DNA of 64,000 nt from a virus: UHGV virus genome UHGV-0305822; one strand, 5' to 3'. Shown here one piece after another: positions 3,527 to 22,918 of this stretch. The stretch's first letter is position 1, and the number at the start of each line of letters is the position of its first letter. Both the position numbers and the translations under genes were made by a program. Under the pieces are notes generated by a model. That model did not search any database. It was not told the DNA's origin and was given only the letters and a program-made list of their open reading frames with translations.

Positions 3527-4192
3527 ATGGAGAAGCTTCAATATAAACGTTTAGACAATAAGTGGTTTGTATTAACGGAGGATTACCATTATCCGTTTAC
3601 GTTACGTGAGATATATCACGACCACGTACACTTAGACCGTGCGGTTTATTTAACGGGTGTATTGCCTGACACACAATTGTGGTTAACGGCACCGAAAGGG
3701 TTCGTTACCGATTTAGCGTCAATTCCTGAACACCTCCAGGGAATTTTCCATCCTGACGGGCCGTGGGCACCTGCGGCCTGCATTCACGACCTACTCTATC
3801 AAAAATGCAGTACGGAACGGAGCTATCCCATGACACCGGGTGGTAACGTTTCGCGTTTTATCGATAAAGAGTTTTCTGACTTAACGTTCCTGCGTATTAT
3901 GCAGTCGTTGGAAATCTCGCCTTATATCTGCCAAACATTTTATAAGGCCGTCGTTGAATTCGGCTGGGATGCCTACGTAGATCCTAATGCAAAGCCATCC
4001 TACAACACTAACGCGTTTCGTACGTTAGATTATAATCGAAACTATTTATTCGTTCGCGAGTTTAAGGAACCTGCAATACCTGACCACGAACGTATTGATA
4101 TCACCACAGATCAGCCCGTTAATGTCAAATACCTGAACATTAAACGTGCTTTTCTGTCTGGGAGGGAAGATGTTTCATCCAAATCCGAGTAA
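3527..4192 (+). CDS. DUF1353-like protein
   Basis: Motif GFVTDLASIP ... AACIHDLLYQ resembles DUF1353 (G..TDGASIP ... HD.LY); ATG at 3527 after GGGAAGGTG (ORF track start 3518 is GTG). Confidence 0.5.
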   Translation: MEKLQYKRLDNKWFVLTEDYHYPFTLREIYHDHVHLDRAVYLTGVLPDTQLWLTAPKGFVTDLASIPEHLQGIFHPDGPWAPAACIHDLLYQKCSTERSYPMTPGGNVSRFIDKEFSDLTFLRIMQSLEISPYICQTFYKAVVEFGWDAYVDPNAKPSYNTNAFRTLDYNRNYLFVREFKEPAIPDHERIDITTDQPVNVKYLNIKRAFLSGREDVSSKSE

Positions 4193-4685
4193 CTTTAAAC
4201 TCAAAGAGTTAGTACCACAGTCTTATATTGCCAAATACGGCGATTCTGCAATTCGGTTTATGAATCCGTTGTTAATGATTTCGCTACAACAGATTCGTAA
4301 CCGTTTCGGTAGAATGGTCATTAACTCAACTACCGCACAACAACGTGGCCTAAGAACCTTAGACTTCTTTATCAATCAAGAAAAGCCTAAAGGCGGTAAC
4401 TATAAACAACGTGCTTTACAACTCTACTCTGATTCAGGAAGTCAACACAAATTCGGTAATGCGATTGACGCAACGTTGTTGGACAGTACCGTAAAGCAGG
4501 TTCACGACTACATCGCCGCTAACCCTGATGAGTTTCCGTTCATTCACTTTATTGAATGCGACATCAGTTGGTTACACATCGACGTTCGTAACCAACCTAA
4601 CATTACTTTCTGGTCACCAAATCGAGGTACTGTGAAAGTGGTTAAGCAAAAACCAATCGATTGGAGCGCCTTAGTCGAGATTTAA
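4170..4685 (+). CDS. peptidase M15-like (zinc D,D- or L-Ala-D-Glu peptidase fold) candidate
   Basis: SQHKFGNAIDA (S.H..G.A.D) and WLHIDV (W.H.D) resemble M15 metal-binding motifs; ATG at 4170 after GGGAGGGAAG; overlaps upstream gene by 23 nt. Confidence 0.45.
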   Translation: MFHPNPSNFKLKELVPQSYIAKYGDSAIRFMNPLLMISLQQIRNRFGRMVINSTTAQQRGLRTLDFFINQEKPKGGNYKQRALQLYSDSGSQHKFGNAIDATLLDSTVKQVHDYIAANPDEFPFIHFIECDISWLHIDVRNQPNITFWSPNRGTVKVVKQKPIDWSALVEI

Positions 4686-4770
4686 CTATTTCTAAGGTGT
4701 TTATACCTTATTTTGTATAAAGACGCTTAGAATGCGTTCTACGCACGATTTGGCGGTTAAAATGAATATA

Positions 4771-4805
4771 CCCTACTCCTTAACGGGAGTAGGGTAGTTT
4801 TTATT
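4771..4805. terminator. bidirectional terminator hairpin between convergent genes
   Basis: Stem CCCTACTCC / GGAGTAGGG, loop TTAACG, followed by TAGTTTTTATT; same stem recurs at 45813 and 46429. Confidence 0.6.
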
Positions 4806-5283
4806 ATTCCGCAGGATGGAGCATTGTTCCGGTGTCAGGAGCTACACCTTCTTTACAGTGGAAGAAAGTAATGCCTTTACCATCACCCGTTTTATATTCT
4901 AAAGTAGAATACGCAAACGTTGGCGTTTTTGAAAGTAACCCATTTACACGGTAGTAACGTTGCCCCGTGATAGGATCGATATTTCCATTAACTTTACCTA
5001 ATAAATCTTTATAAAGTTGGGGTGACTCAATCTTACCATTTGGCCAAGTGGCTACCCAGTTAGCGCCAGTATCGATTACAGTTACTGAACCTAACATTAG
5101 GTTAGTCGAGCTGACGACAGGTTTGTAATTTACAAAATCCTGCTCTACGCCCATACAGGTGTAAATAACCATGTCGTGTGGCTCTACGGGTACAGTTGAG
5201 AATTGGCCATTACTATTCGGTTGTAAAGCACATCCTGCTAATGAAAAAACACCAACCATAGCGATAAGAAAACGTTTTAGCAT
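4804..5283 (-). CDS. predicted lipoprotein (159 aa)
   Basis: N-terminal signal peptide with lipobox LAGC (MLKRFLIAMVGVFSLAGCALQ); convergent to the hydrolase cassette. Confidence 0.6.
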   Translation of the reverse strand: MLKRFLIAMVGVFSLAGCALQPNSNGQFSTVPVEPHDMVIYTCMGVEQDFVNYKPVVSSTNLMLGSVTVIDTGANWVATWPNGKIESPQLYKDLLGKVNGNIDPITGQRYYRVNGLLSKTPTFAYSTLEYKTGDGKGITFFHCKEGVAPDTGTMLHPAE

Positions 5284-5422: not shown

Positions 5423-5968
5423 ATGGCTAAAGCTTTCAATCTGCAGCTCATTGAAGCTGTTAAAGCTAAAAACCCTGAAACTGCTTCTAAACTGACCGTA
5501 AATGATGTCGATTTCGGGGCCGTAGAAGCTTACACCCCGACCGGTAAAAGCGACGCCCGTAACACTAAAGTTGTCCTGACAGCGAAAGAAAGCAGCGCTA
5601 ACTTCACCGGTAATAAAGAATTTCATTATATCCGTCTGGCTTCCGCTAACCTGATTGGTGCCAAAGCTTACCAACAGGAAGGTAGCCTCGACCTGGAAAA
5701 TGACGCTATCGTAACCAAACTCAATCAAGAAATGGTTACTAAAGGTTATGTCGATGACGCGTTCGCTGCAGGTGAACTCACTATTGAGAAAACTAATGGC
5801 GAGAGCGGTGCTAAGGTTTACACTATCAAAGTAAATGCTGGGCACATTAAATTCCTACCAGGTACCATTGCCACCTTCACCTATACCAACCCGGTTCCTC
5901 CGAAGGTAGCTCTGAGCGGCCTGGAAGGTGAACTGGACGGTTTCACCGCACCGTCTCCTAAAGAGTAA
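5423..5968 (+). CDS. hypothetical protein, paralog family member 3 (181 aa)
   Basis: N-terminal similarity to 1420/2282/6034 products; C-terminal GELDGFT motif shared with 6034 product; candidate TATAAT at ~5381. Confidence 0.6.
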   Translation: MAKAFNLQLIEAVKAKNPETASKLTVNDVDFGAVEAYTPTGKSDARNTKVVLTAKESSANFTGNKEFHYIRLASANLIGAKAYQQEGSLDLENDAIVTKLNQEMVTKGYVDDAFAAGELTIEKTNGESGAKVYTIKVNAGHIKFLPGTIATFTYTNPVPPKVALSGLEGELDGFTAPSPKE

Positions 5969-6033: not shown

Positions 6034-6564
6034 ATGGCAGCTACTAACCAGATGATGTTGGTCGCGCTTTATAATGCTGCTAACACTGAGCTACCACATC
6101 AGATTACTGATAAAGAAGTGTCCTTTGGTTTGCCTACTGCGCTGGAAGGCGAAGGTAAGAATACCAAAGTTACCATGACTGCACTGCCGGGTTCTGAGAA
6201 TTTCAAAGGCGCAATCGAACTGCATTACGATCGTCTGGAGCCGGGTGTTGTAGGTCGTATTGAACTAACTGACGATCTGTCTCGTTGGGAAGATCAAAAC
6301 GAATTGCGCGCATGGTTACAATATTACATCAATAAAGTTAAACCGGACGATGCTATTCATCCAGCGGACGTTTCTTATTCTACCGAAGACCAGAAAGACG
6401 AACATGAAAACGTCACTCTGCGTACCGTGACGTGCACCGTTACCGAAAAGAACCTCCGTTATAAACCAGGTGTAATGGCAACTTTCGTAATTACGCCGAA
6501 AGTTGTCGATAATCGTATTGACCTGGCCACCACCAACGGTGAGCTGGACGGCTTTACGTCCTAA
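6034..6564 (+). CDS. hypothetical protein, paralog family member 4 (176 aa)
   Basis: N-terminal similarity to 5423 product; C-terminal GELDGFTS. Confidence 0.6.
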   Translation: MAATNQMMLVALYNAANTELPHQITDKEVSFGLPTALEGEGKNTKVTMTALPGSENFKGAIELHYDRLEPGVVGRIELTDDLSRWEDQNELRAWLQYYINKVKPDDAIHPADVSYSTEDQKDEHENVTLRTVTCTVTEKNLRYKPGVMATFVITPKVVDNRIDLATTNGELDGFTS

Positions 6565-6565
6565 G

Positions 6566-6624
6566 AAAAAATAAAAAAAAATACCTACCTCCTATTACGG
6601 GAGGTAGGTATACTATTTTTTTTT
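6566..6624. terminator. bidirectional terminator (A-run, hairpin, T-run)
   Basis: AAAAAATAAAAAAAAA + stem TACCTACCTCC/GGAGGTAGGTA + TTTTTTTTT between convergent genes ending 6564 (+) and 6634 (-). Confidence 0.65.
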
Positions 6625-6633
6625 CGCTGTCGA

Positions 6634-7305
6634 TTACAGCCCTTGCTCTAACGCAAACGCTTTAATTGAATCGTAATCACGTGCTTCAGCCCAAGCCCTG
6701 ACTTCTCTTTTCTGCTCAGACATTGCGTGGTGTAGTCTTTGATCGCGCTCAACGATTGCTGCCAGCAACGTCTTGCACTGTTCTAACGTAAACGGTTCGA
6801 TACGGGTGTTGTTAGCCGTTAACCAATACGCTGGCGCAGTTTCTGACTGAATATAACGACTCAGTGCTACCTGTGACTTCTCATCTGCCTGGAAAGTGAA
6901 ATCACCTACCTGAATCTCAGCATAGCGTGCATCTTGATAACGGAATTCCAAAGCGCTTAGAATTTTCTGAACATCGGTAAAGATGTACCGCACCGTGGAA
7001 CGTAAACCTGTACGAATTTCTTCCAGGTCAATCCCCAACGTGTCGTTAACAAAGTCTTTCGCTTTCTGTAGCGTAAACCGTGCTTCGATTTCAGACATGT
7101 CGTAGTTACGCATTTGTTCCAATGCTTCGCGATCAGACATCCCATCAATCAACTTATAATGCAGTAACGCACAAAACCCTGTACGGCCGTGATCTTCGCT
7201 ACCGATTTTCTCCATGTAGTTACCATGACGGTCAATCGGTAAATCGTGCGCAAAATAACGGCGACGGATTTCTTCTTTCGTTAAGCCTTCACCAGTAGCA
7301 GACAT
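6634..7305 (-). CDS. hypothetical protein (223 aa), last gene of radical-SAM operon
   Basis: Long ORF, start overlaps upstream gene by 25 nt (translational coupling); no confident motif. Confidence 0.5.
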   Translation of the reverse strand: MSATGEGLTKEEIRRRYFAHDLPIDRHGNYMEKIGSEDHGRTGFCALLHYKLIDGMSDREALEQMRNYDMSEIEARFTLQKAKDFVNDTLGIDLEEIRTGLRSTVRYIFTDVQKILSALEFRYQDARYAEIQVGDFTFQADEKSQVALSRYIQSETAPAYWLTANNTRIEPFTLEQCKTLLAAIVERDQRLHHAMSEQKREVRAWAEARDYDSIKAFALEQGL

Positions 7306-7853
7306 TCATCGTCTCCTTTAATCAACCCTAATTCGATTAACAGTTCAAAATCGATATGACGGAATCTTGTGTCGAAGTCCGATTCCCAATCGATACGGAT
7401 ACCCTGGCATTCTTCTGGCGTTAGCTCAGGAAAAATCACGCTATTAAATTTCTCCCGCTCATCGTAAAACCCATCAATCGGTGAGTTCGGGTTACGTGTT
7501 GCGAAGATAGTAATGCCGGGGAAGGACAATGCCAACACAGTGATAGATTCTGCGCTGGGTTCGCTTAAAGAGCGGCGTAGAAACGCAATTTTGTGACGTG
7601 GGAAATCCAATACCCGTTCTTCAAACCCTGGGTTACGTTTTTCAATTTCCGCAACCGACAGGTCAGTAAGTTCGGTGCAGTACATTGGGATGATTACAGT
7701 CACGCCGTGACGAATCAGTAAGCGTTTTACGTCATCGGTGAAATCTTCACCGTTAATCACCACATAACAACCGAATAGCTTACTGTTTTCCAGAAACTTA
7801 TCCAGAAGTCGAATTCTACGCTTCGTAATATTGTTGATCAGAATTGGTTTCAT
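7281..7853 (-). CDS. hypothetical protein (190 aa)
   Basis: Long ORF overlapping both neighbours (7281-7305 and 7816-7853) on same strand. Confidence 0.5.
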   Translation of the reverse strand: MKPILINNITKRRIRLLDKFLENSKLFGCYVVINGEDFTDDVKRLLIRHGVTVIIPMYCTELTDLSVAEIEKRNPGFEERVLDFPRHKIAFLRRSLSEPSAESITVLALSFPGITIFATRNPNSPIDGFYDEREKFNSVIFPELTPEECQGIRIDWESDFDTRFRHIDFELLIELGLIKGDDECLLLVKA

Positions 7854-9138
7854 CTTTGGCTTCTCTTAATAATTTTTCCTTTTGGGCACGTTCACGAACA
7901 CAGCGTGGGCAATAACACATGCTCGTGTCGTGGAACGCTTTTGCTGACGTCGTACCCATCTTCTGTTTCCAGTATTCCGCCACCATCAGTTTCGCTGTCG
8001 TCCAGCCACACTGACGTCGTTCAGCGTGATACGCCTTACGGTCTTCTAACGTCCCTTCCCCGTTCTCGTAAGAAGCCGCTGCGCAGCTACCACAAGCGTG
8101 TTTCATCGGACAACCTAAACAGGTCTCTGGGTAGTTGGTATATTGCGTTTGAATCTCTTCTAACAATTTACCGTTGTCCAGACTGACGAATTCCCGACCT
8201 ACCAACTCAAACACCGCAGAACGCGACGTTACCGTTGACATAAAGCGGTTACAGCCAAAGATCTTACGGTCAAATCCTAAGCACGTCATGTGCGTTAACG
8301 TCCCACAAAACGGACGTAAACGTTCTGGGTTCAGCCGTACGGTGTCATTATACAGTAACTGGTCACGCCAGTTCGGTTCCCAAATCGTATCGAAATCCAA
8401 CCCTTCTGGAATGATGTGCGATAAGATATTACGTGGGTTGGTGTGTAATCCTTTCTCAACCCAGTAATCTATCACATCCATCATCTGTAACGCGATTGAC
8501 GTCGCCATGCTACGTGGCATAACGTCTTCGAAAGTTACGTTTCCAGAAATTGTCCCACCGCCAGTAATGTCAATTAATGACTTCATCCCCGCAGCATAGA
8601 ACGGCAGCGTTTCTAACGTAAAGGTTGCTTTTACGCCGAGCTCTGCAATGCCAACCTCTTTTAAGTAGTTATAGCCACGTACTGCGGCTTCGTAAGAACC
8701 CTGGCGTGTTGTTGTGAAGATACGATAACGGTCATGGGATTCAGGTAAGCCATCAATCGAAACCCCAACCGAAAGTTTATCTTTCCAACGTTCTACAATC
8801 TCACGGTTCAACGGACGATCTAACAGCGTTCCGTTCGTGGAGATACTAAACATAAACGGTCGGTTGTGTTCTTTACACAACTGCTCAGCGGTTTCAAACG
8901 CAGCCAGCAGCAGTTTAGGCTGCATGAACGGCTCACCACCGATAATGTCGATAATAACTTCAACATTCGGTTCGTTTTTATCACGTTCAAAACAGGCGTG
9001 TAAGAAATCAACAATATCCGCCGCTTTGTTGTTACGCGGGTACTTACGTTCGTAACAATATTCGCAGTCCAAGTTACACGAAAGGTTGGTTACGATCTGA
9101 TACGTTAACTGCTTAGGGAATTCATTTACTTGACTCAT
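7816..9138 (-). CDS. radical SAM enzyme with SPASM-type C-terminal Cys cluster (peptide/protein-modifying maturase candidate)
   Basis: N-terminal CNLDCEYC (Cx3Cx2C radical SAM 4Fe-4S motif); GGEPF SAM-binding-like motif; C-terminal FCG...C...C and CLGCPMKHACGSC clusters typical of SPASM auxiliary Fe-S domains. Confidence 0.8.
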   Translation of the reverse strand: MSQVNEFPKQLTYQIVTNLSCNLDCEYCYERKYPRNNKAADIVDFLHACFERDKNEPNVEVIIDIIGGEPFMQPKLLLAAFETAEQLCKEHNRPFMFSISTNGTLLDRPLNREIVERWKDKLSVGVSIDGLPESHDRYRIFTTTRQGSYEAAVRGYNYLKEVGIAELGVKATFTLETLPFYAAGMKSLIDITGGGTISGNVTFEDVMPRSMATSIALQMMDVIDYWVEKGLHTNPRNILSHIIPEGLDFDTIWEPNWRDQLLYNDTVRLNPERLRPFCGTLTHMTCLGFDRKIFGCNRFMSTVTSRSAVFELVGREFVSLDNGKLLEEIQTQYTNYPETCLGCPMKHACGSCAAASYENGEGTLEDRKAYHAERRQCGWTTAKLMVAEYWKQKMGTTSAKAFHDTSMCYCPRCVRERAQKEKLLREAKDETNSDQQYYEA

Positions 9139-10045
9139 TTGCCGCCCCTCTATTACGCCCTGCCATCACTACGCGACGAATATATTCGTACGCCTCTACA
9201 CCGATAGAGAAGGCCAGTTGGTTACATCCCGATTCCAGAACGTTAGGTGCATTCTGGAGTTGGTGCTCACCACCGTCTGCATTAATCCAAAGACTTTCGC
9301 TGCAAACGTTACACCCTTCTTCAAACACTTTACTTACTGTAAAGCCGCATTCACGACCATTTACTACATTCAGTCGTTCAATGTTATCCTGAACCTGATA
9401 GTAGCCGTAAATAAAGTTCATGACGTGGTCAGGCGATAAAGGTTTTGGCATTTTCGCATCTAAGAGTAACGTCATTGCACGGAAACCGTAATGGTAAATC
9501 GCGCTGTGCAGCTGAATAATATCTTCGTGCCAGCGTTTGTCCCCTAAACGGTCCCGTGTCAGGACACCCCAAGTCTGGACATTATCCAGCTCGTAGATCG
9601 TTTCCAGTGCTTCGTAACAGCCTTCGTCAATAAAGCGCATAAACGGGCGCTCAGACGACTTAAACCCATCGATGCTAACGTAGACATTGTCAAACTGTTT
9701 TAGCAACGGGAGATGCGATTTACGCATCTTTAAGCCATTGGTATACAACTGGTGTTTGAGTTCTGGACGAATCACTTTTAATTCGTCAACAAACGCCTCA
9801 ATTTTACGGGTTGCCAGTAATGGCTCACCACCCGTCCACTGAATTTCGGTAATGGTTGGATTAGCTTCCAGCGCTTCCAAAATTCGCTCACGTTGAAACT
9901 CTCGCGGAGAATCTTCACGATTCATGTAATAGGCTCCACCGCAGAAGCTACAATCCAGGTTGCACTTGGACGTAGCGACTACGGACAATACGGTGGGTTT
10001 ATCGTATAAACGATTCGATAACCTTGGTTCTGCATTGGTTGTCAT
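9122..10045 (-). CDS. radical SAM enzyme (second, shorter; partial auxiliary Cys cluster)
   Basis: CNLDCSFCGG (Cx3Cx2C); GGEPLL motif; C-terminal ECGF...CNVCSE Cys cluster; overlaps downstream rSAM start by 17 nt. Confidence 0.75.
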   Translation of the reverse strand: MTTNAEPRLSNRLYDKPTVLSVVATSKCNLDCSFCGGAYYMNREDSPREFQRERILEALEANPTITEIQWTGGEPLLATRKIEAFVDELKVIRPELKHQLYTNGLKMRKSHLPLLKQFDNVYVSIDGFKSSERPFMRFIDEGCYEALETIYELDNVQTWGVLTRDRLGDKRWHEDIIQLHSAIYHYGFRAMTLLLDAKMPKPLSPDHVMNFIYGYYQVQDNIERLNVVNGRECGFTVSKVFEEGCNVCSESLWINADGGEHQLQNAPNVLESGCNQLAFSIGVEAYEYIRRVVMAGRNRGAANESSK

Positions 10046-10066
10046 TGCAGGTGACTCCGGTCGTTT

Positions 10067-10966
10067 TTAAATATAATCAATGGCGAACAAAGGATCGTCG
10101 TCTACGTTAGCACCAGGGGTTAACAAGAATGGAGAGTTATACGCTTCCAAAATACGGTTAAGGTCTTTATAACGGACATTTAAACGTTCTAAATCCGCTA
10201 ACGTTACGTTACGGTCCAACACCGCCGACACTGCTGCTTTCTCTTCGTCAGTTAACGTGACTTTCGTCATTAAGAAACTAACGAGTTTTGCCAGATCCGC
10301 TTCTGTTGACGGATGCTCGCCAATACGCGTTTGAATCAAATGCTGCATCCAAGGCTTACGGATGCGTTTTGTGATTTCGTGTTCATCTGTCAGGGCAACC
10401 CACACGGAACGTTCACGATCCCACACGAACTTATAGCTATACGCCATTAAATCCGCTAAGCAATTAATCCCTAACGCTTCGTACCCTTCAATTTCGATAT
10501 ACGATTCCGTATCGAAATAGTTCTTCGTTTCTGGTGTTACCAGGGTAAAGAAATACGGGAACGAGCCTAAGTAATCCGGTGACCACCAACGACGGGCAAC
10601 CGGTTTTGCGCCCATTTCTTCAAATGGGGTAAAGAACAATTCCATATCTACGGAGTTATTCAAAATCCCGTCACTAAAGAAATATTTACCCGCAACCAGT
10701 TTACCACGCAACTCGGAGTCACCGGTAAAGACCACTACACTTTCTGCCGTCAGATCACGAATCTTAAACGTATTTTCTACACGATAGTTTTTACGATCGG
10801 TGAAGAAACGTCCGCGCACTTTAGGCCATTCGCCCGGCAACTGAGTCAACAGACGAACTTCATCTGCTAAGTGTGCACGTACGGAATCAGGGGAAGAAAT
10901 GTGAAGTGGGTGATTGAAAATTGTTTTGTACGCTAAATGTAAATCATTCTTCATTGATTGCTCCAA
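10067..10966 (-). CDS. hypothetical protein (299 aa), between Cys-rich genes and radical SAM genes
   Basis: Long ORF on operon strand; no recognisable motif. Confidence 0.5.
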   Translation of the reverse strand: MEQSMKNDLHLAYKTIFNHPLHISSPDSVRAHLADEVRLLTQLPGEWPKVRGRFFTDRKNYRVENTFKIRDLTAESVVVFTGDSELRGKLVAGKYFFSDGILNNSVDMELFFTPFEEMGAKPVARRWWSPDYLGSFPYFFTLVTPETKNYFDTESYIEIEGYEALGINCLADLMAYSYKFVWDRERSVWVALTDEHEITKRIRKPWMQHLIQTRIGEHPSTEADLAKLVSFLMTKVTLTDEEKAAVSAVLDRNVTLADLERLNVRYKDLNRILEAYNSPFLLTPGANVDDDPLFAIDYI

Positions 10967-11103
10967 TTATTTCACGGTCAAACAGACATTCAGGGTATAG
11001 AAACCACCGCACCATTGCCTACCGGTGACTTGAAACTCAGTAGTAAACCCGTACGATTAACTCGGTTATTGCGTAATAGACATACTACCACTGGAGGGCT
11101 TAG

Positions 11104-11310
11104 TTACCTTCCCCCCGCACCTTTACTACAGCTACCACTGCACGACCAGCTACATCCGCCGTTACAGTTATAATGGCTTAAAGGTAAACCGGCAAGGTTA
11201 TTGGTTGAAGACACAGTGCCCTGGTTTGCAATATAGTTGTTTGCGTTAGCGGTCGTAATATACCCTTCCGCTGTTACTAACCGATCACGAAGGTTCTTAA
11301 GGCTAATCAC
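11104..11310 (-). CDS. Cys-rich leader+core protein C (short core, ~68 aa)
   Basis: ORF track start 11340 is TTG and overlaps gene B; GTG at 11310 preceded by GGGAGG gives MISLKNLRDRL...HYNCNGGCSWSCSGSCSKGAGGR; N-terminus similar to protein A. Confidence 0.5.
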   Translation of the reverse strand: MISLKNLRDRLVTAEGYITTANANNYIANQGTVSSTNNLAGLPLSHYNCNGGCSWSCSGSCSKGAGGR

Positions 11311-11312
11311 AA

Positions 11313-11711
11313 TTACCTCCCAGAACACCCACCAGAACAACTACCTGAGCAGCCTGCAGAACAGTTTCCTACACACGAGTTAGAACAACTCCCCGTACAG
11401 CTTCCTGAACAGCCACCAGAACAGGTATTCGAACATCCACTACAGCCTGCACTACAACCTGATACACAGTTTGCAGAACACGAAGAACCACAGCCGCCTG
11501 ATGCGTTCCCTGTACAACCACCAGAACAGCTCGAACAGGTCCAGCTACAGCTCCCACCACAGTCATAGTGGTTGCGAGCTTGCCCACCGAATAAGTCTGC
11601 GTTGTTCGTCGCTTTCCCACGAATATAGTTTTGTACTGCACCCGTATTCTTCAATGCAGTGTTGTCAATGTTATTTAGCCGCGCTTGTAGCGCAGGTAAT
11701 CCAATTGCCAT
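11313..11711 (-). CDS. Cys-rich leader+core protein B (132 aa)
   Basis: ~50-aa Cys-free N-terminal segment then HYDCGGSCSWTCS followed by ~80 aa of CSG/CTG repeats (about 25 Cys). Confidence 0.6.
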   Translation of the reverse strand: MAIGLPALQARLNNIDNTALKNTGAVQNYIRGKATNNADLFGGQARNHYDCGGSCSWTCSSCSGGCTGNASGGCGSSCSANCVSGCSAGCSGCSNTCSGGCSGSCTGSCSNSCVGNCSAGCSGSCSGGCSGR

Positions 11712-11721
11712 TTTTCACCTC

Positions 11722-12120
11722 TTAGGTTGGGCCAGAACAGCCACCAGAGCAAGCACCAGAACAACCCGTAGAACAACGGCCCGAGCAAGCACCCCCACAG
11801 GTCCCACTGCAACCTGAGCAGCCACCGGAACACGTTGAACTACATCCAGTACACTGGTTACCGCACGCAGAGGAGCAGCTACCTACACACACTGACGTAC
11901 AGGTGCCCGAACAACTCGTACAGCCATGCGTACAACCGTTTGAGCACGTCCAGCTGCAACTCCCCCCGCAGTCTAACCGACTTGGCGTCCAACCCGAAAA
12001 AGTGTCGGCGGCATTATGTGCTTTCGACGCAACTTGCGGATCAACACGTGGGCCAGTTGCCATTTGGTTCTCTACGTTGGTGATTCGGTCACGTACATTT
12101 TTAACACTGATCGCCATCAC
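11722..12120 (-). CDS. Cys-rich leader+core protein A (132 aa)
   Basis: N-terminal MAISVKNVRDRITNVENQ..., junction RLDCGGSCSWTCS, then Cys/Gly/Ser/Thr repeats; GTG-ATG start with AAGGA RBS. Confidence 0.6.
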   Translation of the reverse strand: MMAISVKNVRDRITNVENQMATGPRVDPQVASKAHNAADTFSGWTPSRLDCGGSCSWTCSNGCTHGCTSCSGTCTSVCVGSCSSACGNQCTGCSSTCSGGCSGCSGTCGGACSGRCSTGCSGACSGGCSGPT

Positions 12121-12128
12121 GTATCCTT

Positions 12129-12174
12129 AAAATAAAAAAGAATGGAGGACTACGCCCATAAGCATAGTTCCTCC
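12129..12174 (-). terminator. terminator hairpin downstream of 401-aa fibre gene, immediately upstream of Cys-rich gene A
   Basis: Minus-strand GGAGGAACTATGCTTATGGGCGTAGTCCTCC hairpin followed by ATTCTTTTTTATTTT. Confidence 0.55.
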
Positions 12175-12184
12175 TGTAATAAAG

Positions 12185-13390
12185 TTATTTCGTACCCGCT
12201 TCTGCCTGAACGTCATCACGGGACGTCAAGTTAGCGTTAACGTGTACTGGAGCCTGAACCACACCACCGTATTTCTTGTGGAGATAGCCTGTGTGTGGGT
12301 TATCCGCCGCAATATGGTTTTGCAGGTTCTGATTCGCCTGACTGATCGCGTTCGTGTTATTCGCAACCTGTTGTTTAAGCGCATCCAGGTTTTGTTGCAG
12401 ATTATCAATTTTCTGATCGGACTCATTACCCCGTTGTTCTAACGCAGCAATGCGCTGAATCGCTTGGTTGAGTTTGGTGCTCAGATCGTTGATATTTTTC
12501 TGTAACTGTAACACTAGCGAATTTAGGTTCGCCAATGCCAATGCCATTTTCTGGTAGTTTTGTGCAACGATGTTAAGTTGGTCGTTCCACGCTTCCAAAG
12601 ATTTGACAACAGCATCAATACGTTTTCCTAACGCTTCATCCGCTTTCTTCAACGCATTAATATCAGTAATGGTTGCATCGATGGCAGACTGTACATCACG
12701 GATAAGTGCACGGATCTCCGTTTCTGTTAACCCGTTAACCTGGTGAATATCCAGATGGTGGACGTTACCCGTGGCGTTAATGTGCGCGTTCAGCGCGTCC
12801 AGGAAATCGTTTTTCAGGCTTTCGAGAATCGCTTTGATGTTCTCAAGCTGTACAGCATCGCCCGCCGTTATCGCATCTTTAATGCCAGCGAGCACTGTAA
12901 TGATATATTCGAAGCCGTAAATATCGCCGACGTCTTTATACGTCGGTGCCGACGGAAATGTATCTGGAACATTTCGCAAGTCTTTAAAGCCAACAGTTCG
13001 ATTATCGAGATTCAACTCAGCAATCGCCTGTTCTATCGCAGTCACGTTTGCCGACTGCGGACCCCCGACCACTTGCGCCGAAACCGTGATATCGGTCGGA
13101 ATCGCGGTGTTCGTTACAACAACCGCCATTACCACTTCCCGGTTCTTCGTCAATTTCTCGTAAGCCGGGTGTGCAAAAATCAACTCATAGTCCGTTCCGC
13201 GCTCATACGTCGCATCGGGGCGGTTAGCAACCCGCAAGCGGAACGTATCAGCATAAAACGGACCGTCAGGAAAAGCAAACGCACGGTTAACTTTACCTGT
13301 ACCTAACGTAACCTGACGCTCCACGGCGTTAGAGGTTAGGGTTCCCGTTAAATCTAAAGGGTATTGGTATACAATGGAGGCCATGGCCAC
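12185..13390 (-). CDS. tail fibre-like protein (401 aa) with C-terminal coiled coil
   Basis: N-terminal FPDGPFY ... GTDYEL motif shared with the three giant ORFs; long heptad-like Q/N/L-rich region. Confidence 0.6.
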   Translation of the reverse strand: MAMASIVYQYPLDLTGTLTSNAVERQVTLGTGKVNRAFAFPDGPFYADTFRLRVANRPDATYERGTDYELIFAHPAYEKLTKNREVVMAVVVTNTAIPTDITVSAQVVGGPQSANVTAIEQAIAELNLDNRTVGFKDLRNVPDTFPSAPTYKDVGDIYGFEYIITVLAGIKDAITAGDAVQLENIKAILESLKNDFLDALNAHINATGNVHHLDIHQVNGLTETEIRALIRDVQSAIDATITDINALKKADEALGKRIDAVVKSLEAWNDQLNIVAQNYQKMALALANLNSLVLQLQKNINDLSTKLNQAIQRIAALEQRGNESDQKIDNLQQNLDALKQQVANNTNAISQANQNLQNHIAADNPHTGYLHKKYGGVVQAPVHVNANLTSRDDVQAEAGTK

Positions 13391-13424
13391 TCTCCTTAAT
13401 CCGAGACGTCCTTGTCTCGTGGCG

Positions 13425-16400
13425 TTAAGATGTAAACATAAGATTGAACTGGAGCTTATCGATATCGCGCGTTTGTGCTGGGTTAACCGCGTCGTACGTG
13501 GTTGCCACGTAGACCGTTAATGTCCCGTCAGCAAACGAGGTTTTCACCGGTGGCGTAGTCCCTGTCTGTCCATCAGTTACAATGACGACAGGTTGAGACG
13601 GGAGTTGATGGAACTGACCCTTAACCGCTTTATACACCAAACCAGATTGCGCTGCTAACTCCGTGTCGGTATACACGATAAACGGTGTGTCGATATCTGT
13701 CTGTTTAATGACAGTGTTCGACTCAACGTCAATCAGCTGAACAGCACCGAACTTCGTACGGTAGCTATCGTATTCATTTTTTGGAATGACAAACGTAGCA
13801 TGTACACGGACTTCTTCGGCGGGCTTAAATCCGGCGTGTTCTTTTTCCAGATAGCTGTTAGCAGTTAACGTTACTGTCTGTTCAGTCATCGTACCACCAG
13901 ACTGGTTTAACCCGTAACGAACTTGGGTTATACCTGTCGGAGCCGCAAGCCTGATTTTTAGTCTACGGTTAGCGGTACCAGGATCGCCTGGCACTCTAAC
14001 ACGCAGGCTCAAAGCCAGATATGCATTCGCACCGGTAGTCGGTTTCGTATACGCACCCAACCACTTCATATTCGCGGTTGCCGCTTGACTGTTCTCAGAA
14101 GCAGTAGCCGCTGCAACGTTCGCAGCAACCGCTTTCTGCCAGAACTGGTCAGCGCAGTTTTCATACGCTACTCTACCGATACTTTTATAACCTGCGTAGG
14201 TTTCCTGTATCGGCAACTTGGGACGTGTTGTGATCCCGCTCAACGCATTCCATCTCTGACCATCGACATACCCTGCACCATTGCTCGCAGATGCCGTGGG
14301 GGCTTTCAGCGGTTGGTTAACCAAGGTTTGAAGTGGACCCGTTTTTCGATCGTACGCCGCCGCAACGTCGTGCTGATCTCTAACGGCAGCGTGTTCTTCT
14401 AATTCACGAACCCTGCCTAGCCGTTTCACTTTATCGATGTTAATAGCAACAATGCGCTTTTTATCGGTTGTAACTGTACCAACAAATAATCGCGAAGTCG
14501 TATCCGGCAGCTTTTCCAGCCCGATCTGATATTGAGCTTTCGAACCTACAAGAGCAGCATGAACATAGAACGTCTGGTTAGCATGGTTTTCTGGGAATTC
14601 ATTGCTTAAATCCACCGACCACGTCGGTAATGTATAGCTATTACTACCGAAATCTAACCTGACCTCTTCCGTCAAATATAGAATCCAGCCTTCCGCAGTC
14701 TCCACACCGGCGATAATAACCGCCTCCCCCCCAGTTGAGAACCTGGTGTCATTAACGAACTCTTCGGCTGTATATGCGTTACCTGAACAGAAGACACGAT
14801 CTGCTTTAGAGAAAATTAGTGCCATCTTGTCCCAATTACCCGCTCCCATGTAGCAGCCTGATTCGGGATTATGTGCAGGGGCCATCTGACGCAACTGTGA
14901 CTTACCGGGAACGCGAGTCCAGCCCGACCCAGGGTCGAAGGTGTACTTCGCAGCGTAACCCAAAGCATTTAGGTCCCCGATATTCCGTATTGTCAGCGTA
15001 TAAGGCAGCCATAGACCGAAGTTTACACCGTCGGCAGAAGCAAAAATGGGCTGGCCTACACGTCGCGTTTTATTACCCGCTTCTTCCCTCAGAGACTGAT
15101 AACTTAAGCCGTAATCAAGGTCTAAGAACCAATCAACGAGTTTGAAAGTAGCCGAGTTAAAACGTAGATAACCGTTTTCTTTGGTCGGGCTCACCATGAA
15201 GTAATAGATGTCGAGGACTCGACGTCCGTTACTCAGGATTTTCATACATGAGACTTGTAATAGGTCGAACTCACAAACAGTGTTAATGCCTAGCAACCAG
15301 AGCGCAAACAACGCGTTGCCGCTTTGGTGTGCTGCACTGATGCGCTCGTTCGCGTAACCATTTGCCTGACCAGATGGTGCGCCATCGACAATCATCCTAA
15401 TCATCTTCTGGCGATCCGCTTCCTCTAACGTCAGTCGTTCTGATGACAAGGCAAAGTTACCGTAGATGTTCCGATATGGGAAGGTTTCCGCTTTCGTCAA
15501 ATACCAACCGTTTAATTGCCCGTGACGCTCCTCAGGAGTCATGCAAGCAGCCATACAGCTTAACTGTTCGTAAAGGGTTGCATCAACTTCTCGACGGTTG
15601 TTGTTCGGGCCATAACCGCTATATCCGGGAACGTCATAAGGTTTACTTGGGTCAACTTCTACTTCGATCGTATAGCGGTTACGCGGATTGGATAACCATA
15701 CTTTGTTTGAGCCACCGATACCGACAGGATGAGAAAGACCAATGGTATAGATAGAACCACGACCTTTATCCCAAGTAAATGTCGCTTCGCCTGAGGTATT
15801 GTTTGGGTTATCGTAACGCAGATAATCAAAAAACTCTTTGCCTTGCGTACTTTTAATAGTAACATTCGGCATCTGGTCCGCATCGTTAATCTGCCAGCAG
15901 GAAAGCATCATTCCTGAGACATTAGGTTTAGCATACGTCGCAAAACAACGATTGTTTGCTTGGCCGCCACCCCACTTACGACTGGTTTCTACAGTTGAGC
16001 CATCCGCGAACGATAGTCTGGTAGTATCAACCTTAATGGGGAAACGTTCGGCACCCTCTAACGTAACTCTGCCCGTTAACGTATCGATTGTGAAACTTGT
16101 TGACCATTGACGGAAATTAATCGTCGTACCGTCGGCAGCCGCAAACCACACGCTGGGGACATGATTCACACGAATAACGCTGTCGCGTACCGCACAAGCA
16201 TGGTTACATTCTGGACCGTGAACAAAGTTGTGACCGATTGTCCATTTAGCCCGTGCCTCTGGCGGGTAATACGTAAAGAACTGACCAGTCTGCGACTCTT
16301 CGGTCTTCTGGCCAATTCTTAGGCAGAGGTTATCTCCGAATTGCCCCATTTCTCCGGTTAGGGTTACACGTTCAAATTCTAACTCAGTATTGGTAGTCAA

Positions 16401-18608: not shown

Positions 18609-18621
18609 CGTAAAGACTCCT

Positions 18622-18664
18622 ACTTTTAAATAAAATGGATACCCCTCCCCATTACAGGGAGGGG
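18622..18664 (-). terminator. terminator hairpin between 1401-aa and 1727-aa fibre genes
   Basis: Stem CCCCTCCC/GGGAGGGG followed on minus strand by ATCCATTTTATTTAAAAG. Confidence 0.5.
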
Positions 18665-18702
18665 TTACCTACGGACACACAACTGCCCGCAGGCAGCCTG
18701 TC

Positions 18703-21700
18703 CTAAGTACGATCCCCTAACTGCTTCCCGTTAAGTTCTCGTTTCAGTACAGCCAAAATCCACTTCCACGCTTTACTCGTGATGTGGTACGGATTGCGTT
18801 TCTCCATTAAGAATTGACTTTCGCCGCTACGGAGTTCGAAGCTCTGCGCATTGAGTTGGTCTTGGCGAACACCGTTCTCGTCAGTGACATCTAACGAACA
18901 GGTAAAGTTAAGCTCGTAGCCCTCTGGATTATTGCCTGGTGGTTCTAAGACAATATAAATGTCCTGTCCTACACGTAGGTCCTTTGGCGTAAGGGTAACT
19001 GCTTTACCTGTGTCCGCGCTGGTCGAAAGCGCAAACGGCACGCTATCGATAGCTGATACATACGCGTCCTTCCCAGCATCGCCGATAATCACCTTACCCG
19101 GCCAGTTACACTTCACCGTTCCTGTCACTTTTGCAACACGGTACTGCTGTTTATCAGCACCTTGTGCAAAGCGTAAAATGAGTTTATGCCGATACCGGTT
19201 TGCGGCAGCTTTGGATGTACTCCACTCATTGTTCCAGGAGGCATGAAGTTCACCTTTCTTGGCCATCAAAGCACCACGAGACAGCTTACGTGGGAAGAAT
19301 TGTGCCGGAAGTTGCCCTTCGTGGGAAATCGCTACACTCCCTTGTCCGGTTGGAAGTGCTATTGTTTCAGTAGGGCAATAATTTAACTCGTACACGTGTG
19401 TTGTAGGATCGATCAATTTCTGATAGTAATCGCCGTCCTTACTGTCCGCTAACCAACCAACGGAAGAGTCCGTATACGATTCAAACAGTGAACGTAAATA
19501 GTGATACTTATCGATATCGATGTTACCCGTTTTTGGATCGATCAGTGCATGGTTAATAGTGAGGAAACACTTCTCACTCAAACCATTAAACGCCAAGCCC
19601 ACGCCGTCACCGGTAAAATAGTCTACCAGGTCAAATGGAAGCGTCATTTCTATTTGTCGCAAGTTGATAGTCGTTGAACCAAACTGCGAAAAAGATAGCG
19701 CTAAACGAAGTACACGAGTATTAACATTATAACGATAACGAATCATCCCACGCGGCGCATGGTTCGCGGAGATCTTATCACCGTTTGGACCCCACCCAAT
19801 TAAATCGAGTATTTCGGCGTTTGCTACTTCACCATTAAACAAAACGTCTTTAGTCGTGATTTCAACTGACGTTTCCCTTCCGCCATCCATTAACATCGAA
19901 CCGTTATTCAACTCGAAGCTCTTGTGCCAAACTTCAGAAGTCGAGCCAGCACCTACACCCACCTTACAAGTTTTACTAGTAAGGTTAATACGCACATAAC
20001 GGCGTCCCACTGTACCGCCCTGCGAGCTTGCACACAAAATAAGATCAGGTGCCGCAGACAGTGCCTTGGTCCCTGCAATGTCATCAACATCGAAAACGAA
20101 TGAGCCTTCGAACGTTGGTGCGTTATTTTCCTTCGGGTTAAATGGCGTGAACCAACAATAAGGCGTCGCGCCCTCGGTTGAGAAAATCAACTCTAAGTCA
20201 GATTTAACATTTAATCCGTGGGAATAAGAAAAAAGACCGCGACTTAAGGTACAAAGCGTTCCACCGCTTCCGCTACCTAAGGTTTTTCGATATATTAAAG
20301 CGCGGGGTTCTGGGATAGCACGGTTTAATAACGGCAACCGTGGGTTATCCGTTAACGTCCAGTCTACAGAACTGAGTCCGTGTGCTTTACGAGCGTCGAT
20401 GTGCTCACTAACCTCGGTACTTTTCCCGAAATCAAACGTGGTTTCAAAACTCACGGTTTTATTCGAGTAAGATTCACCGGCAACAATATCAACGTAGCCG
20501 ATATAACCGCGCTCAGGGTCAACTGCAATACTCTGAATTGGCTCAGTACGCGAATACAGAGAACCTGTGAGCATGTTAACGTACAGATAATGACGAATGC
20601 CTACGTGTGTTGTAACGAACTCTTGGAGAAACTCTACGTGCGTTTCAGGGCCACTGAAATAAACGGGGTAGTCACCGTCGTAAACTTCGAATTGCACTGC
20701 TGCGGATTTAGCCGTGTCGCTACACTCAGCTTTAACCGCTACGGTGTAGTTTTCAACGTCTGCTGATGTTTCATACACTGCAACAAGCGGAGACTGGCCT
20801 GTGGCTGCCTGGATACCGTTAATGTAAACTGTAACCGGGCCACCCCCTGCGGCATAAACCCAAAGCTTCGGCTGGCGTGCCCTTACCCGCGTTTTGGCCA
20901 ACACAGTAACAACTGACTGGTCACCCATCTGTGAGGCAGTTTTACCTACCGGAACAGATTGGAAACCCATTAGTGGTGGTTCTTCAATACCTGTCCAGTT
21001 AATGCCCTTACCAGCGCTCACTTTCCCCGTAGGCCAGGTCGTCTCAATTTGGTTGTTCGGTGAGAACCAGTTAAACATCGGCGTAGTTTGCAGGTCAATC
21101 GAACCTGTAACGGCGCTATCAGCTTTCGCACCGTTCAGCAAATAGAAATATTTCAAATCTTGAACGGAGATTGCCGTACCCTGACTATTAAAACGCCAGT
21201 CTGCACCTTTTACCGCAGCAAAATCCGTTACCGACCCTTCTTTCGCGTTCGCAATCGCCGCAGCAACCACATCTAAACGCGCCGAAAGTTCTTTTAAGAT
21301 GTTCGGTACCACTGCACGGTTTTCAACCAAACCGTTCTGGTTAGTTGCGTACCGACCGATACCGTAAACGGTTTGCGAGGCTTTATAAATGCCTAGTTCC
21401 GACCAATCGTGGTGGTGACCTGCATCCGCTAAACCACTAAGCGCCGTATTTAACTCGGTAGACAACGGCTTGTCAACGTCTGCGGTGTTATCCGCTTGCC
21501 CTAACCCCAGATCAGCTTTCGTGATTGTCCTGGAGCCGTCATTCATCGGCTTACCGTTAATCATGGTCGTTTTAGCCACATACCCCGATAAGTCGGTCGA
21601 GTATGGTGCTAACGAAGCCGGTGTTGCAGCAACCCCAGTCGTTTCTGTACCTTTACCTGTTTTAAGTTTAGCGACGCCTTTTTCGGCGGTTGTCGCTTTT

Positions 21701-22908: not shown

Positions 22909-22918
22909 AAAATTCTCC

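Follow-up and report, generated by a model that had tools for sequence, protein, structure and literature searches.

The window, a 64,000-nucleotide stretch of the virus genome UHGV-0305822, belongs to a ~225-kb SPN3US-like jumbo phage of the Salmonella/E. coli type. Within it, a minus-strand transcription block begins with three giant fibre/baseplate paralogs (22919-27241, 18703-22908 and 13425-18608). The last of these is a gp168-like baseplate/tail-fibre protein of 1727 aa; SPN3US gp168-170 are tail proteins similar to phiKZ gp131 (PMC5105663, PMC5694885). Next is a gp167-like virion protein (12185-13390, minus strand, 401 aa; phrog_2163, E-value: 8.6e-104) that has a coiled-coil C-terminal half and shares its N-domain with the three paralogs upstream. 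SPN3US gp167 was detected in virions and is not a head protein (PMC5694885, Supplementary Table 1). The genes described below lie in one tightly packed or overlapping block with these gp167-170 homologs. The block ends with a gp162-like protein (7281-7853, minus strand, 190 aa; phrog_7988), which overlaps the end of the radical SAM gene rSAM1 by 38 nt, is conserved in the jumbo clade only, has no known function and was not detected in SPN3US virions, and a gp161-like DUF4376 protein (6634-7305, minus strand, 223 aa; Pfam E-value: 5e-11; phrog_8169), which has weak tail-fibre-family matches (phrog_1807 tail fibre, E-value: 2.4e-4). A bidirectional terminator-like hairpin (6581-6611; 12-13 bp stem with T-runs on both strands) closes the block.

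Three small minus-strand ORFs, each preceded by a Shine-Dalgarno sequence, follow the gp167-like gene. CysA (11722-12117, 131 aa; phrog_6085, E-value: 1.6e-40) has a Cys-free N-terminal segment of 49 aa, the junction CGGSCSWTC (nt 11944-11970) and an array of 21 Cys in C-[S/T]-G-x units (nt 11737-11970) that ends 4 aa before the C-terminus. CysB (11313-11711, 132 aa) is a paralog with the same junction and a 20-Cys array (nt 11325-11561), and it reaches the cutoff of the NCBIfam TIGR04114 Cys-rich repeat model (20.4 bits against 20). CysC (11104-11310, 68 aa; phrog_6085, E-value: 2.5e-24) is a third paralog that keeps the N-terminal segment and the junction CNGGCSWSC but has only 4 Cys, a vestigial array. 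It is 90% identical in amino acid sequence to its SPN3US ortholog, and a degenerate array also occurs in CR5. The Cys content of CysA and CysB contrasts with a 1.0% Cys background in the long ORFs of the window. Cys spacing is 4 residues in 33 of 39 intervals, and a Cys-repeat criterion fires on only these two of the 611 window ORFs. The Cys-rich genes are real, as dN/dS between the window and SPN3US is 0.13 for CysA and 0.09 for CysB with synonymous sites saturated. Array length is conserved at 20-21 Cys across the window, SPN3US and CR5, although the x positions diverge.

The small ORFs are followed on the same strand by X (10067-10954; phrog_8030), a 295-aa accessory protein of unknown fold that is found only in cassettes of this subfamily, always between the Cys-array gene and the radical SAM (rSAM) genes. 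The next gene encodes rSAM2 (9122-10045, 307 aa), a short radical SAM enzyme with the motif CNLDCSFC at residues 28-35 (nt 9941-9964). In an alignment, three conserved C-terminal Cys (C245, C248 and C274; nt 9224-9313) are enough for one auxiliary cluster (twitch-like). The last enzyme gene encodes rSAM1 (7816-9138, 440 aa), a SPASM-type radical SAM enzyme with CNLDCEYC at residues 21-28 (nt 9055-9078). Eight invariant C-terminal Cys (C278-C377; nt 8008-8307) include those of CLGCPMKHACGSC at residues 340-352, and a jumbo-clade-specific CYCPRC motif lies at nt 7900-7917. No N-terminal RRE domain was found in rSAM1. Both enzymes pass the Pfam Radical_SAM model (57 bits for rSAM1 and 53 bits for rSAM2; cutoff 29.5). 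The Pfam SPASM model itself did not hit at E<=0.1, and the SPASM assignment of rSAM1 rests instead on its Cys residues and predicted fold. Among 20 diverse homologs, 11 Cys are invariant, including the 8-Cys SPASM-like set, and the AF2 model (pLDDT 87) matches CteB, ChlB, anSME and SuiB over about 400 columns.

The observation made in the initial annotation, that two adjacent radical SAM genes, the first with a SPASM-type Cys cluster, are grouped with three Cys-rich genes sharing a Cys-free N-terminal segment and a junction, is confirmed. Some details required correction. The Cys-rich ORFs had been placed directly upstream of the radical SAM genes, but X, which was overlooked, lies between them, and the third ORF has almost no repeat core. 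Better starts, each with a Shine-Dalgarno sequence, are an ATG at 12117 for CysA (AAGGA), a GTG at 11310 for CysC (GGGAGG) and an ATG at 10954 for X.

Profile searches place both enzymes among peptide- or protein-modifying radical SAM enzymes. The best NCBIfam hits of rSAM1 are the PapB ranthipeptide maturase (E-value: 1.2e-33) and the CXXX-repeat maturase TIGR04115 (E-value: 6.5e-33). It had been specified in advance that scoring of both enzymes as QueE, NrdG or other nucleotide-metabolism proteins with no SPASM domain would overturn the proposal. This was not the outcome: rSAM2 scores 35.5 bits against a cutoff of 260 for QueE and 33.9 against 131 for NrdG, and these assignments are excluded. 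Loss of linkage in related genomes had likewise been named as a refuting result, but synteny is essentially absolute. Of 80 metagenomic viral loci found in IMG/VR with the rSAM1 profile, 79 have a same-strand Cys-array ORF at a median of 841 nt and a maximum of 2.6 kb from the radical SAM gene, and the one exception is cut off by the contig end. Among isolated phages, 62 of 62 genome records carry both rSAM1 and the Cys-rich module. Distant relatives at three loci (L016, L029 and L068) are true TIGR04115 members, at 434-474 bits, and the domain family of the gp167-like protein also lies next to the TIGR04115 system in L068.

In unrelated prophages (P2-like and lambda-like), the same junction motif and Cys array form the C-terminus of the tail fibre protein itself. 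This arrangement occurs in Deferribacter and Campylobacter prophages and in metagenomic contigs (loci L002, L003, L005, L012-L014, L174 and L176), with features such as PF12571 (Phage_tail_fib), collagen-like repeats and GpJ neighbours, and the fibre gene is followed by an X homolog and then radical SAM genes. In the SPN3US virion proteome, gp167-170 are present and gp161-166 are absent. The genes are unannotated or misannotated in SPN3US and CR5, so published virion proteomics could not detect them; virion presence of CysA, CysB and CysC has never been tested because these ORFs were missing from the search database. The initial annotation proposed either a phage-borne RiPP-like system or a radical-SAM-crosslinked Cys-rich virion component and favored a structural role, and this interpretation is supported by our results, with the fibre fusions strengthening the structural reading. 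Its comparison with SCIFF-type precursors is only an analogy.

The proposed model, which we consider more likely than not, is that of a tail fibre maturation cassette. CysA, CysB and the vestigial CysC would be small fibre-tip modules, each with a ~49-aa Cys-free segment ending in the motif NA..L.G....Y, a junction C..(x)CSW[T/S]C and, in CysA and CysB, an array of about 20 C-[S/T]-G-x units running to the C-terminus. In the SPN3US-like jumbo phages, what is elsewhere the end of the fibre polypeptide would have become three separate genes placed just after the fibre/baseplate genes, with the gp167-like protein as the inferred candidate attachment partner. During late infection, in the reducing cytoplasm where disulfides do not form, rSAM1 would modify the array, probably helped by rSAM2 and X. 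X sits where a tail fibre assembly chaperone normally sits and may present the substrate, since rSAM1 has no recognition (RRE) domain of its own. The most likely chemistry is the formation of many Cys-sulfur-to-carbon (thioether) cross-links, as made by the nearest characterized enzymes. This would turn a floppy low-complexity tail into a covalently braced tip or trimer staple that resists proteases and reduction. The enzymes and X are not packaged. The enzyme class, repeat architecture, purifying selection, strict co-occurrence and fusion to fibres elsewhere were demonstrated by this analysis, but that the array is the substrate, that thioethers are formed, that X has the role suggested and that the small proteins enter the virion are all inferences. 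There is no direct evidence that any modification occurs, or of what kind, and because rSAM1 scores far below the curated cutoffs of every characterized family (115-117 bits against 340-350), chemistry cannot be transferred with confidence. The role of X rests only on gene position. Homology between the Cys-free N-terminal segment and fibre pre-junction segments is weak (one hit, E-value: 0.004, about 17 residues), and radical SAM enzymes are oxygen-sensitive, yet these phages are routinely grown aerobically. That the two radical SAM enzymes and a helper protein always travel with these fibre-tip proteins, with Cys at every fourth residue, suggests that phages use peptide-antibiotic-type chemistry to covalently brace a structural part of the virion.

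An alternative, which is possible but doubtful, is that the array is a structural fibre-tip element but the modification is not a thioether. The radical SAM enzymes might oxidize Cys or Ser to formylglycine (as anSME does), epimerize or methylate residues, or form C-C or C-O links, or the array might mainly bind metal or form disulfides after lysis, with the enzymes doing something ancillary. SPASM enzymes catalyze many different reactions, the rSAM1 model matches anSME nearly as well as CteB, all family scores are below their cutoffs, and the arrays lack the Asp/Glu acceptors used by PapB and QhpD. However, the anSME target motif C/S-x-P/A-x-R is absent from the arrays, the two best-scoring families (PapB and TIGR04115) and the best structural match (CteB) are Cys-targeting, with PapB and CteB being thioether formers, and the one invariant feature of all substrates is Cys itself, every fourth residue.

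It is less likely that CysA and CysB are precursors of a diffusible RiPP, with a ~49-aa leader and a Cys-rich core that is modified and released at lysis as a bacteriocin-like, signalling or metal-binding peptide and never becomes part of the virion. The layout of the small ORFs is also what a RiPP precursor looks like, the nearest enzyme families are all RiPP maturases, and the enzymes and X are not in the virion. Against this, Pfam and PHROGs searches of the operon found no protease or exporter, no RRE domain was found, and in at least eight unrelated loci the junction and array are covalently part of a 220-480-aa tail fibre protein. In addition, the genes sit inside the late fibre operon with overlapping reading frames, and the conserved array length suggests a geometric constraint. 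The only interpretation that we found in the phage literature is that such radical SAM genes are auxiliary metabolic genes (QueE, NrdG, MoaA or viperin-like) that boost host metabolism (PMC6614189, PMC2853527), in which case the neighbouring Cys-rich ORFs would be unrelated and could be spurious low-complexity frames. One record labels the enzymes AlbA/MoaA, and there are weak N-terminal core similarities to MoaA, QueE, NrdG and viperin. This reading is very unlikely and effectively refuted: the matches to QueE, NrdG and MoaA (43.7 bits against a cutoff of 284) cover only the shared radical SAM core, co-occurrence with Cys arrays holds across unrelated phage types, and the Cys-rich ORFs show purifying selection and Shine-Dalgarno sequences.

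Several known systems can be compared with this cassette. X resembles phage tail fibre assembly chaperones of the P2 gpG and lambda Tfa type in gene position only: it lies immediately after the fibre gene, as between the gpH-like fibre and the radical SAM genes in the P2-like prophage L003, and its SPN3US ortholog is not packaged in the virion. There is no sequence or fold similarity, and the only tail-fibre-assembly entry in a BFVD search was not significant (E-value: 0.32). The best PDB sequence hit of rSAM2 is the twitch-domain sactisynthase SkfB (6efn, E-value: 3e-6), which also has a single auxiliary-cluster Cys set after the radical SAM core. This match covers only the core (residues 20-156), no fold model was made for rSAM2, and TIGR04403 scores 30.9 bits against a cutoff of 300. 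For rSAM1, the best sequence and fold match in the PDB is the SCIFF thioether maturase CteB (5wgg; sequence E-value: 5.8e-14; Foldseek E-value: 1.1e-14 over 401 columns), whose target is Cys-dense. CteB, however, has an N-terminal RRE of about 100 aa that rSAM1 lacks, the TIGR03974 score is 59.5 bits against a cutoff of 425, and SCIFF precursors are ~45-aa peptides with six Cys, not 20-Cys arrays on fibre modules.

QhpD, which acts on the quinohemoprotein amine dehydrogenase gamma-subunit QhpC, is a precedent for a SPASM enzyme installing multiple Cys thioethers in a subunit of a protein complex rather than in a secreted peptide. TIGR03906 is among the hits of rSAM1 (61 bits), but far below the cutoff of 453; the acceptors there are Asp/Glu, and the setting is a periplasmic enzyme subunit with no phage or structural context. 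The best-scoring characterized family is that of the PapB/PapA (freyrasin) ranthipeptide system (NF047865; 116.8 bits against a cutoff of 340). PapB is a compact SPASM enzyme that installs several thioethers in a substrate with regularly spaced Cys, and its thioether macrocyclization has been described (PMC12373016). PapB links Cys to Asp/Glu in CX3D motifs, whereas the arrays of the window contain essentially no acidic residues, and its product is a small peptide and not a fibre protein. TIGR04115 (radical SAM peptide maturase, CXXX-repeat target family), with its target TIGR04114, likewise pairs a SPASM-type enzyme without an RRE with a protein bearing long C-x-x-x arrays, and the alignment with rSAM1 is full length (residues 10-371 of 440 against 3-345 of 359). 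As far as we know and could find, this family is defined only in silico and has no published biochemistry. Its true members L016, L029 and L068 are also phage-borne, and at least some sit in tail modules, but rSAM1 scores 114.7 bits against a cutoff of 350 and so represents a sister clade and not a member. Subfamily B proteins have a different N-domain of ~110 aa and much longer arrays of up to 122 Cys, while the subfamily of the window adds X, usually a second short radical SAM enzyme, a conserved CSW[T/S]C junction and placement of the array at a fibre C-terminus.

The sequence belongs to a ~225-kb jumbo phage of the SPN3US group. IMG/VR contig UViG_3300029126_000001 is 100% identical over rSAM1, while SPN3US itself is about 72% identical in DNA. 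The exact X, rSAM1 and rSAM2 proteins occur on roughly 222-228-kb contigs, and on up to 322 contigs in all, in assemblies labelled Salmonella, E. coli and Shigella, which suggests that the jumbo phage is often co-sequenced with, or carried by, clinical and food isolates. On the minus strand, a single tightly packed block runs from three giant gp168-170-like baseplate/fibre paralogs (27241 down to 13425) to a bidirectional terminator at 6581-6611. Within this block lie, in order, a gp167-like virion protein (12185-13390), CysA (11722-12117), CysB (11313-11711), CysC (11104-11310), a 295-aa protein here called X (10067-10954), rSAM2 (9122-10045), rSAM1 (7816-9138), a gp162-like ORF and a DUF4376 protein. 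Gaps between genes are 10, 2, 149, 21, -17, -38 and -25 nt, and every gene has a Shine-Dalgarno sequence at its refined start. The 149-nt spacer between CysC and X (10955-11103) is present in close relatives (such as the related locus L008) but is only 22 nt in SPN3US. A regulatory RNA at this position was rejected, as the spacer has no significant predicted structure (z-score 0.58). On the other side of the terminator, two adjacent paralogous plus-strand ORFs (5423-5968 and 6034-6564; 181 and 176 aa, phrog_4862, with weak virion-structural-protein matches) converge on the fibre block.

The initial annotation, which described two radical SAM enzymes clustered with three tandem Cys-rich genes in a tail-fibre block, is correct in its central observation. 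Both enzymes carry the CX3CX2C cluster motif (CNLDCEYC in rSAM1 and CNLDCSFC in rSAM2) and exceed the gathering threshold of the Pfam Radical_SAM model (PF04055; 57 and 53 bits, respectively, cutoff 29.5). CysA and CysB have a Cys-free first 49-50 residues followed by the junction CGGSCSWTC and then by 21 and 20 Cys, respectively, spaced every fourth residue in 33 of 39 intervals. These proteins are 15-16% Cys, compared with 1.0% in the long ORFs of the window, and a simple Cys-repeat criterion picks out only these two of 611 ORFs. Three corrections apply. The Cys ORFs, which had been placed directly upstream of the rSAM genes, are separated from them by gene X; CysC, which had been described with a repeat core, keeps the junction but has only 4 Cys; and the Pfam SPASM model, despite the proposed SPASM-type C-terminus of the first enzyme, does not hit. 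Translation of the Cys-rich ORFs had been named beforehand as a point on which the proposal could fail, and the comparison with SPN3US indicates that they are real genes: dN/dS is 0.13 for CysA and 0.09 for CysB with saturated synonymous sites, and CysC is 90% identical in protein. CysC has a vestigial array (4 Cys here and 2 in Cronobacter phage CR5), yet it is the most conserved of the three paralogs (71-75% identity to SPN3US for CysA and CysB). Its role is unexplained, although it could be a cap, a heterotrimer partner or a decoy. In the protein collection searched, unrelated 172-aa proteins are grouped in the same 90% cluster as the 68-aa CysC, and one of them is its representative; this is a clustering artefact.

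rSAM1 is most similar among NCBIfam models to the PapB ranthipeptide maturase and TIGR04115 (radical SAM peptide maturase, CXXX-repeat target family). Both models align over nearly the whole protein, but at 115-117 bits against cutoffs of 340-350. Twenty homologs down to 28% identity keep the three rSAM-cluster Cys and eight C-terminal Cys (C278, C286, C296, C340, C343, C349, C352 and C377), the set expected for the two auxiliary 4Fe-4S clusters of a SPASM enzyme. The spacing at residues 340-352 is CX2CX5CX2C, one residue shorter than the CX2CX5CX3C seen in the CteB alignment. Only Radical_SAM and Fer4_12 were reported by Pfam at E<=0.1. An AlphaFold (AF2) model of the whole protein (pLDDT 87) matches solved SPASM enzymes in a Foldseek search of the PDB, including CteB (401 columns), anSME (400-412 columns), ChlB and SuiB. 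rSAM1 starts at the rSAM core (residue 19 aligns with CteB residue 105) and so has no RRE. An extra C-x-C-x2-C motif (CYCPRC; residues 408-413, 7900-7917) lies in a C-terminal extension. It is conserved in the 10 jumbo-clade-like homologs of the rSAM1 alignment and absent from the shorter, more distant ones, including the prophage proteins, and could be a zinc or further cluster site.

rSAM2 shares only the core with rSAM1 (25% identity over 150 aa). It keeps three conserved C-terminal Cys (C245, C248 and C274), enough for one auxiliary cluster, and its best PDB hit is SkfB. These Cys are compatible with a twitch-domain enzyme, but the NF033640 model scores only 37.7 bits (cutoff 170) and no structure model was made, so the evidence does not settle whether rSAM2 belongs to this class. 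X has a confident model (pLDDT 85) with no structural neighbour outside its own family, which has only 44 clusters.

Linkage of the rSAM genes to Cys-rich ORFs in related genomes had also been singled out in advance as a test, and it was found to be nearly universal. Of the 80 IMG/VR loci found with the rSAM1 profile, 79 carry a same-strand Cys-array ORF; in the exception, the upstream side is cut off by the contig end. The 87 same-strand hits all lie within 2.6 kb of the rSAM (median 841 nt), against 7 opposite-strand hits in 1.17 Mb. Among 50,697 phage records compared by tblastn, 62 have an rSAM1 homolog and 60 have the Cys-rich N-terminal module. The two missing records are CR5, and inspection shows that CR5 carries all three ORFs. 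The A/B/C triplet and the array length (20-21 Cys) are conserved across the window, SPN3US and CR5, while the x positions drift. In ten Salmonella phage records (SPFM1, 5, 6, 8, 9, 10, 12, 14, 15 and 20) the rSAM and X genes give high HMM scores but BLAST coverage of only 5-21% with short nucleotide matches, which looks like frameshift-ridden or otherwise corrupted sequence in this region. Two other approaches were uninformative. A scan of genome contigs with the rSAM1 profile gave mostly generic SPASM/SCIFF-type enzymes and was not useful for co-occurrence, and a back-translated DNA pattern of the junction motif matched only TGC-rich chance sequences.

The decisive comparative result comes from rSAM1 homologs at 33-40% identity, which occur in prophages of quite different architecture. 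Examples are a P2-like element in Campylobacter pinnipediorum, a GpJ-type element in Deferribacter abyssi, and metagenomic contigs. In these, the gene before the cassette encodes a tail-fibre protein, recognized by PF12571, HxH..Y..E repeats, collagen-like repeats or "TATKLQTARAI" repeats, and its last 30-100 residues are the same junction and array (for example, "NADQLGGQAGSYYRCSDCSWTCSSSCTGSC..."). Fused forms of this kind include those of the loci L003 (P2-like; PF12571 Phage_tail_fib), L014 (collagen-like) and L012, L013 and L176 (fibre repeats). Next comes a 250-277-aa homolog of X, followed by one to three rSAM genes. Two more distant X homologs, chosen blind from a search of 1.84 billion representatives, show the same arrangement. 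The small jumbo-phage proteins therefore look like fibre C-terminal modules that have become separate genes, and the window genes likewise lie in a tail module, between the gp167-170 homologs and the DUF4376 gene. Support from the Cys-free segment alone is specific but weak: the only non-jumbo hit among 15,122 ORFs is the Deferribacter fibre, matched exactly at its pre-array residues (E-value: 0.004). The cassette is evidently modular and expandable. Locus L005 has three consecutive rSAM genes (6306-9134) and a downstream Cys-containing protein with a TSP1_ADAMTS Pfam hit (10876-11418), and locus L072 has two consecutive giant Cys-array proteins (52 and 78 Cys; 9306-12260) after its rSAM.

Errors in reference annotations explain why these genes were missed. 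In SPN3US (NC_027402; positions 12167-13196 and 10321-11235 of the extracted locus), gp166 (gp100/SPN3US_0166) is annotated in the wrong reading frame of the 134-aa Cys-rich ORF, the 130-aa and 68-aa Cys ORFs are unannotated, and the annotated start of gp164 (rSAM2) is 40 codons late, which removes its CX3CX2C motif (CNLDCSFC). In the SPN3US record JN641803, the three correct Cys ORFs lie at complement 143413-143817, 143828-144220 and 143191-143397. In CR5 (NC_021531; positions 4145-4950 of the extracted locus), gene CR5_157 is annotated on the opposite strand across the stretch that holds CysA and the start of CysB. About half of the phage records annotate nothing there, and the exact CysA and CysB sequences are absent from a collection of 15 billion proteins. 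Literature searches on TIGR04115 and CXXX repeats, on radical SAM or RiPP chemistry in relation to tail fibres, Cys-rich proteins and jumbo phages, and on the work of Haft and Basu (2011) found no description of this system, although most subscription journals lay outside their coverage. The only published view of the rSAM genes found is that they are "enhancing host metabolism" (PMC6614189).

The repeat unit of the array is C-[S/T]-G-[S/G/T]. The nearest characterized enzymes, PapB and CteB, make Cys thioethers, and QhpD does so on a protein subunit. The favoured mechanism is therefore multi-site thioether cross-linking of the array in the reducing cytoplasm, giving a rigid tip or trimer staple, with Ser/Thr at x1 or Gly at x2 as the candidate acceptors. 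X occupies the position of a tail-fibre chaperone, and its SPN3US ortholog, like both rSAMs, is absent from virions, whereas gp167-170 are present (PMC5694885 Supplementary Table 1). The presence of the Cys proteins in purified virions was not examined here, and the SPN3US proteome database lacked these ORFs because of the gp166 frame error. The gene content, the enzyme class, the linkage and the fibre fusions are observed, while the mechanism is an inference: neither the chemistry nor virion incorporation has been demonstrated, no structure was predicted for CysA or CysB, and no acceptor residue, division of labour between the two rSAMs, or role for X or CysC was identified. The proposal made in the initial annotation, of either a phage RiPP-like system or a radical-SAM cross-linked virion component with a structural role preferred, is supported, and the fibre-associated structural role is favoured.

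A broader reading is possible but tentative, and is judged somewhat less likely than not. Tailed phages of very different kinds (jumbo myoviruses, P2-like and lambda-like prophages, and many gut and environmental phages) may post-translationally cross-link a dedicated poly-Cys module at the tip of their tail fibres with radical-SAM/SPASM enzymes, building a ladder of about 20 or more thioether bridges in the reducing cytoplasm. This would be the first radical-SAM "RiPP chemistry" applied to a virion structural protein and would give the first function for the curated but uncharacterized TIGR04114/TIGR04115 pair, with X as a new-fold helper protein acting as the substrate adaptor. If true, it would link RiPP/radical-SAM enzymology with phage structural biology, two fields that have not met, explain why SPN3US-like phages and many others carry radical SAM genes that the literature has described as "boosting host metabolism", and reveal a way for viruses to make covalently stabilized extracellular structures inside a reducing cell. 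Fibre tips determine host range and particle robustness, both of which matter for therapeutic Salmonella, E. coli and Erwinia phages, and the enzymes could also become tools for multi-site thioether stapling of Gly/Ser/Thr-rich sequences. Finally, three conserved genes are missing or misannotated in the reference genomes of model jumbo phages, with consequences for existing proteomic data.

Other functions for the enzymes find less support. Assignment to nucleotide or cofactor metabolism was the outcome that the initial annotation had said would refute it, and it was not obtained: rSAM2 scores 35.5 bits for QueE (cutoff 260), 33.9 for NrdG (cutoff 131) and 43.7 for MoaA (cutoff 284), and none of these is among the best 25 hits of rSAM1. 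A defence-system reading was rejected because PADLOC showed only viperin-core similarity. The leader-dependent recognition element (RRE), leader protease or exporter of a generic RiPP biosynthetic cluster were not found in the locus: rSAM1 has no RRE, X has no PqqD-like or other known fold, and no protease or transporter family was found among the proteins of the operon; whether a modified core is released as a free peptide was not measured. An anaerobic sulfatase maturase is not indicated either (TIGR03942, 59.2 bits; cutoff 349), and its target motif C/S-x-P/A-x-R is absent from CysA, CysB and CysC.

Among known families, rSAM1 falls below the TIGR03974 SCIFF maturase cutoff (59.5 bits against 425). 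It lacks the N-terminal RRE of that system, and its neighbouring precursors are 131-132 aa with 20-21 Cys rather than ~45 aa with six Cys. It also falls below the PapB model (NF047865, 116.8 bits; cutoff 340), and the Cys-X3-Asp/Glu motifs of PapB substrates are not found: in the arrays of the window's subfamily, Asp reaches only 1% at x3 and is not among the common residues at x1 or x2, and Glu is not seen. With respect to TIGR04115, rSAM1 scores 114.7 bits (cutoff 350), but it is encoded on the same strand as, and about 2 kb downstream of, proteins with CXXX repeats. CysB just reaches the cutoff of the target model TIGR04114 (20.4 bits; cutoff 20), CysA does not (14.4 bits) and CysC has no hit. 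As the partners of true TIGR04115 enzymes also gave no hit at E<=0.001, the model is weak on such low-complexity sequence, and these scores neither place the Cys proteins in the family nor exclude them. The more distant viral loci L016, L029 and L068 (rSAM 24-28% identical) are true TIGR04115 members at 434-474 bits. The partners in this more distant group (subfamily B) are 100-670-aa proteins with up to 122 Cys, and the N-domains and small neighbouring ORFs of subfamily B matched no PHROG family. At least some of these systems sit in tail modules. In L068, an unrelated 39-kb phage contig, the gene directly beside the system (6557-7606) belongs to phrog_2163, the same family as the gp167-like protein of the window, which shares this N-terminal domain with all three giant fibre/baseplate paralogs (12185-27241). 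The system described here is thus a sister subfamily of the CXXX-repeat system, which has been defined only in silico, and is distinguished from it by X, the CSW[T/S]C junction, usually a second rSAM, and the fibre-terminal position of the array.
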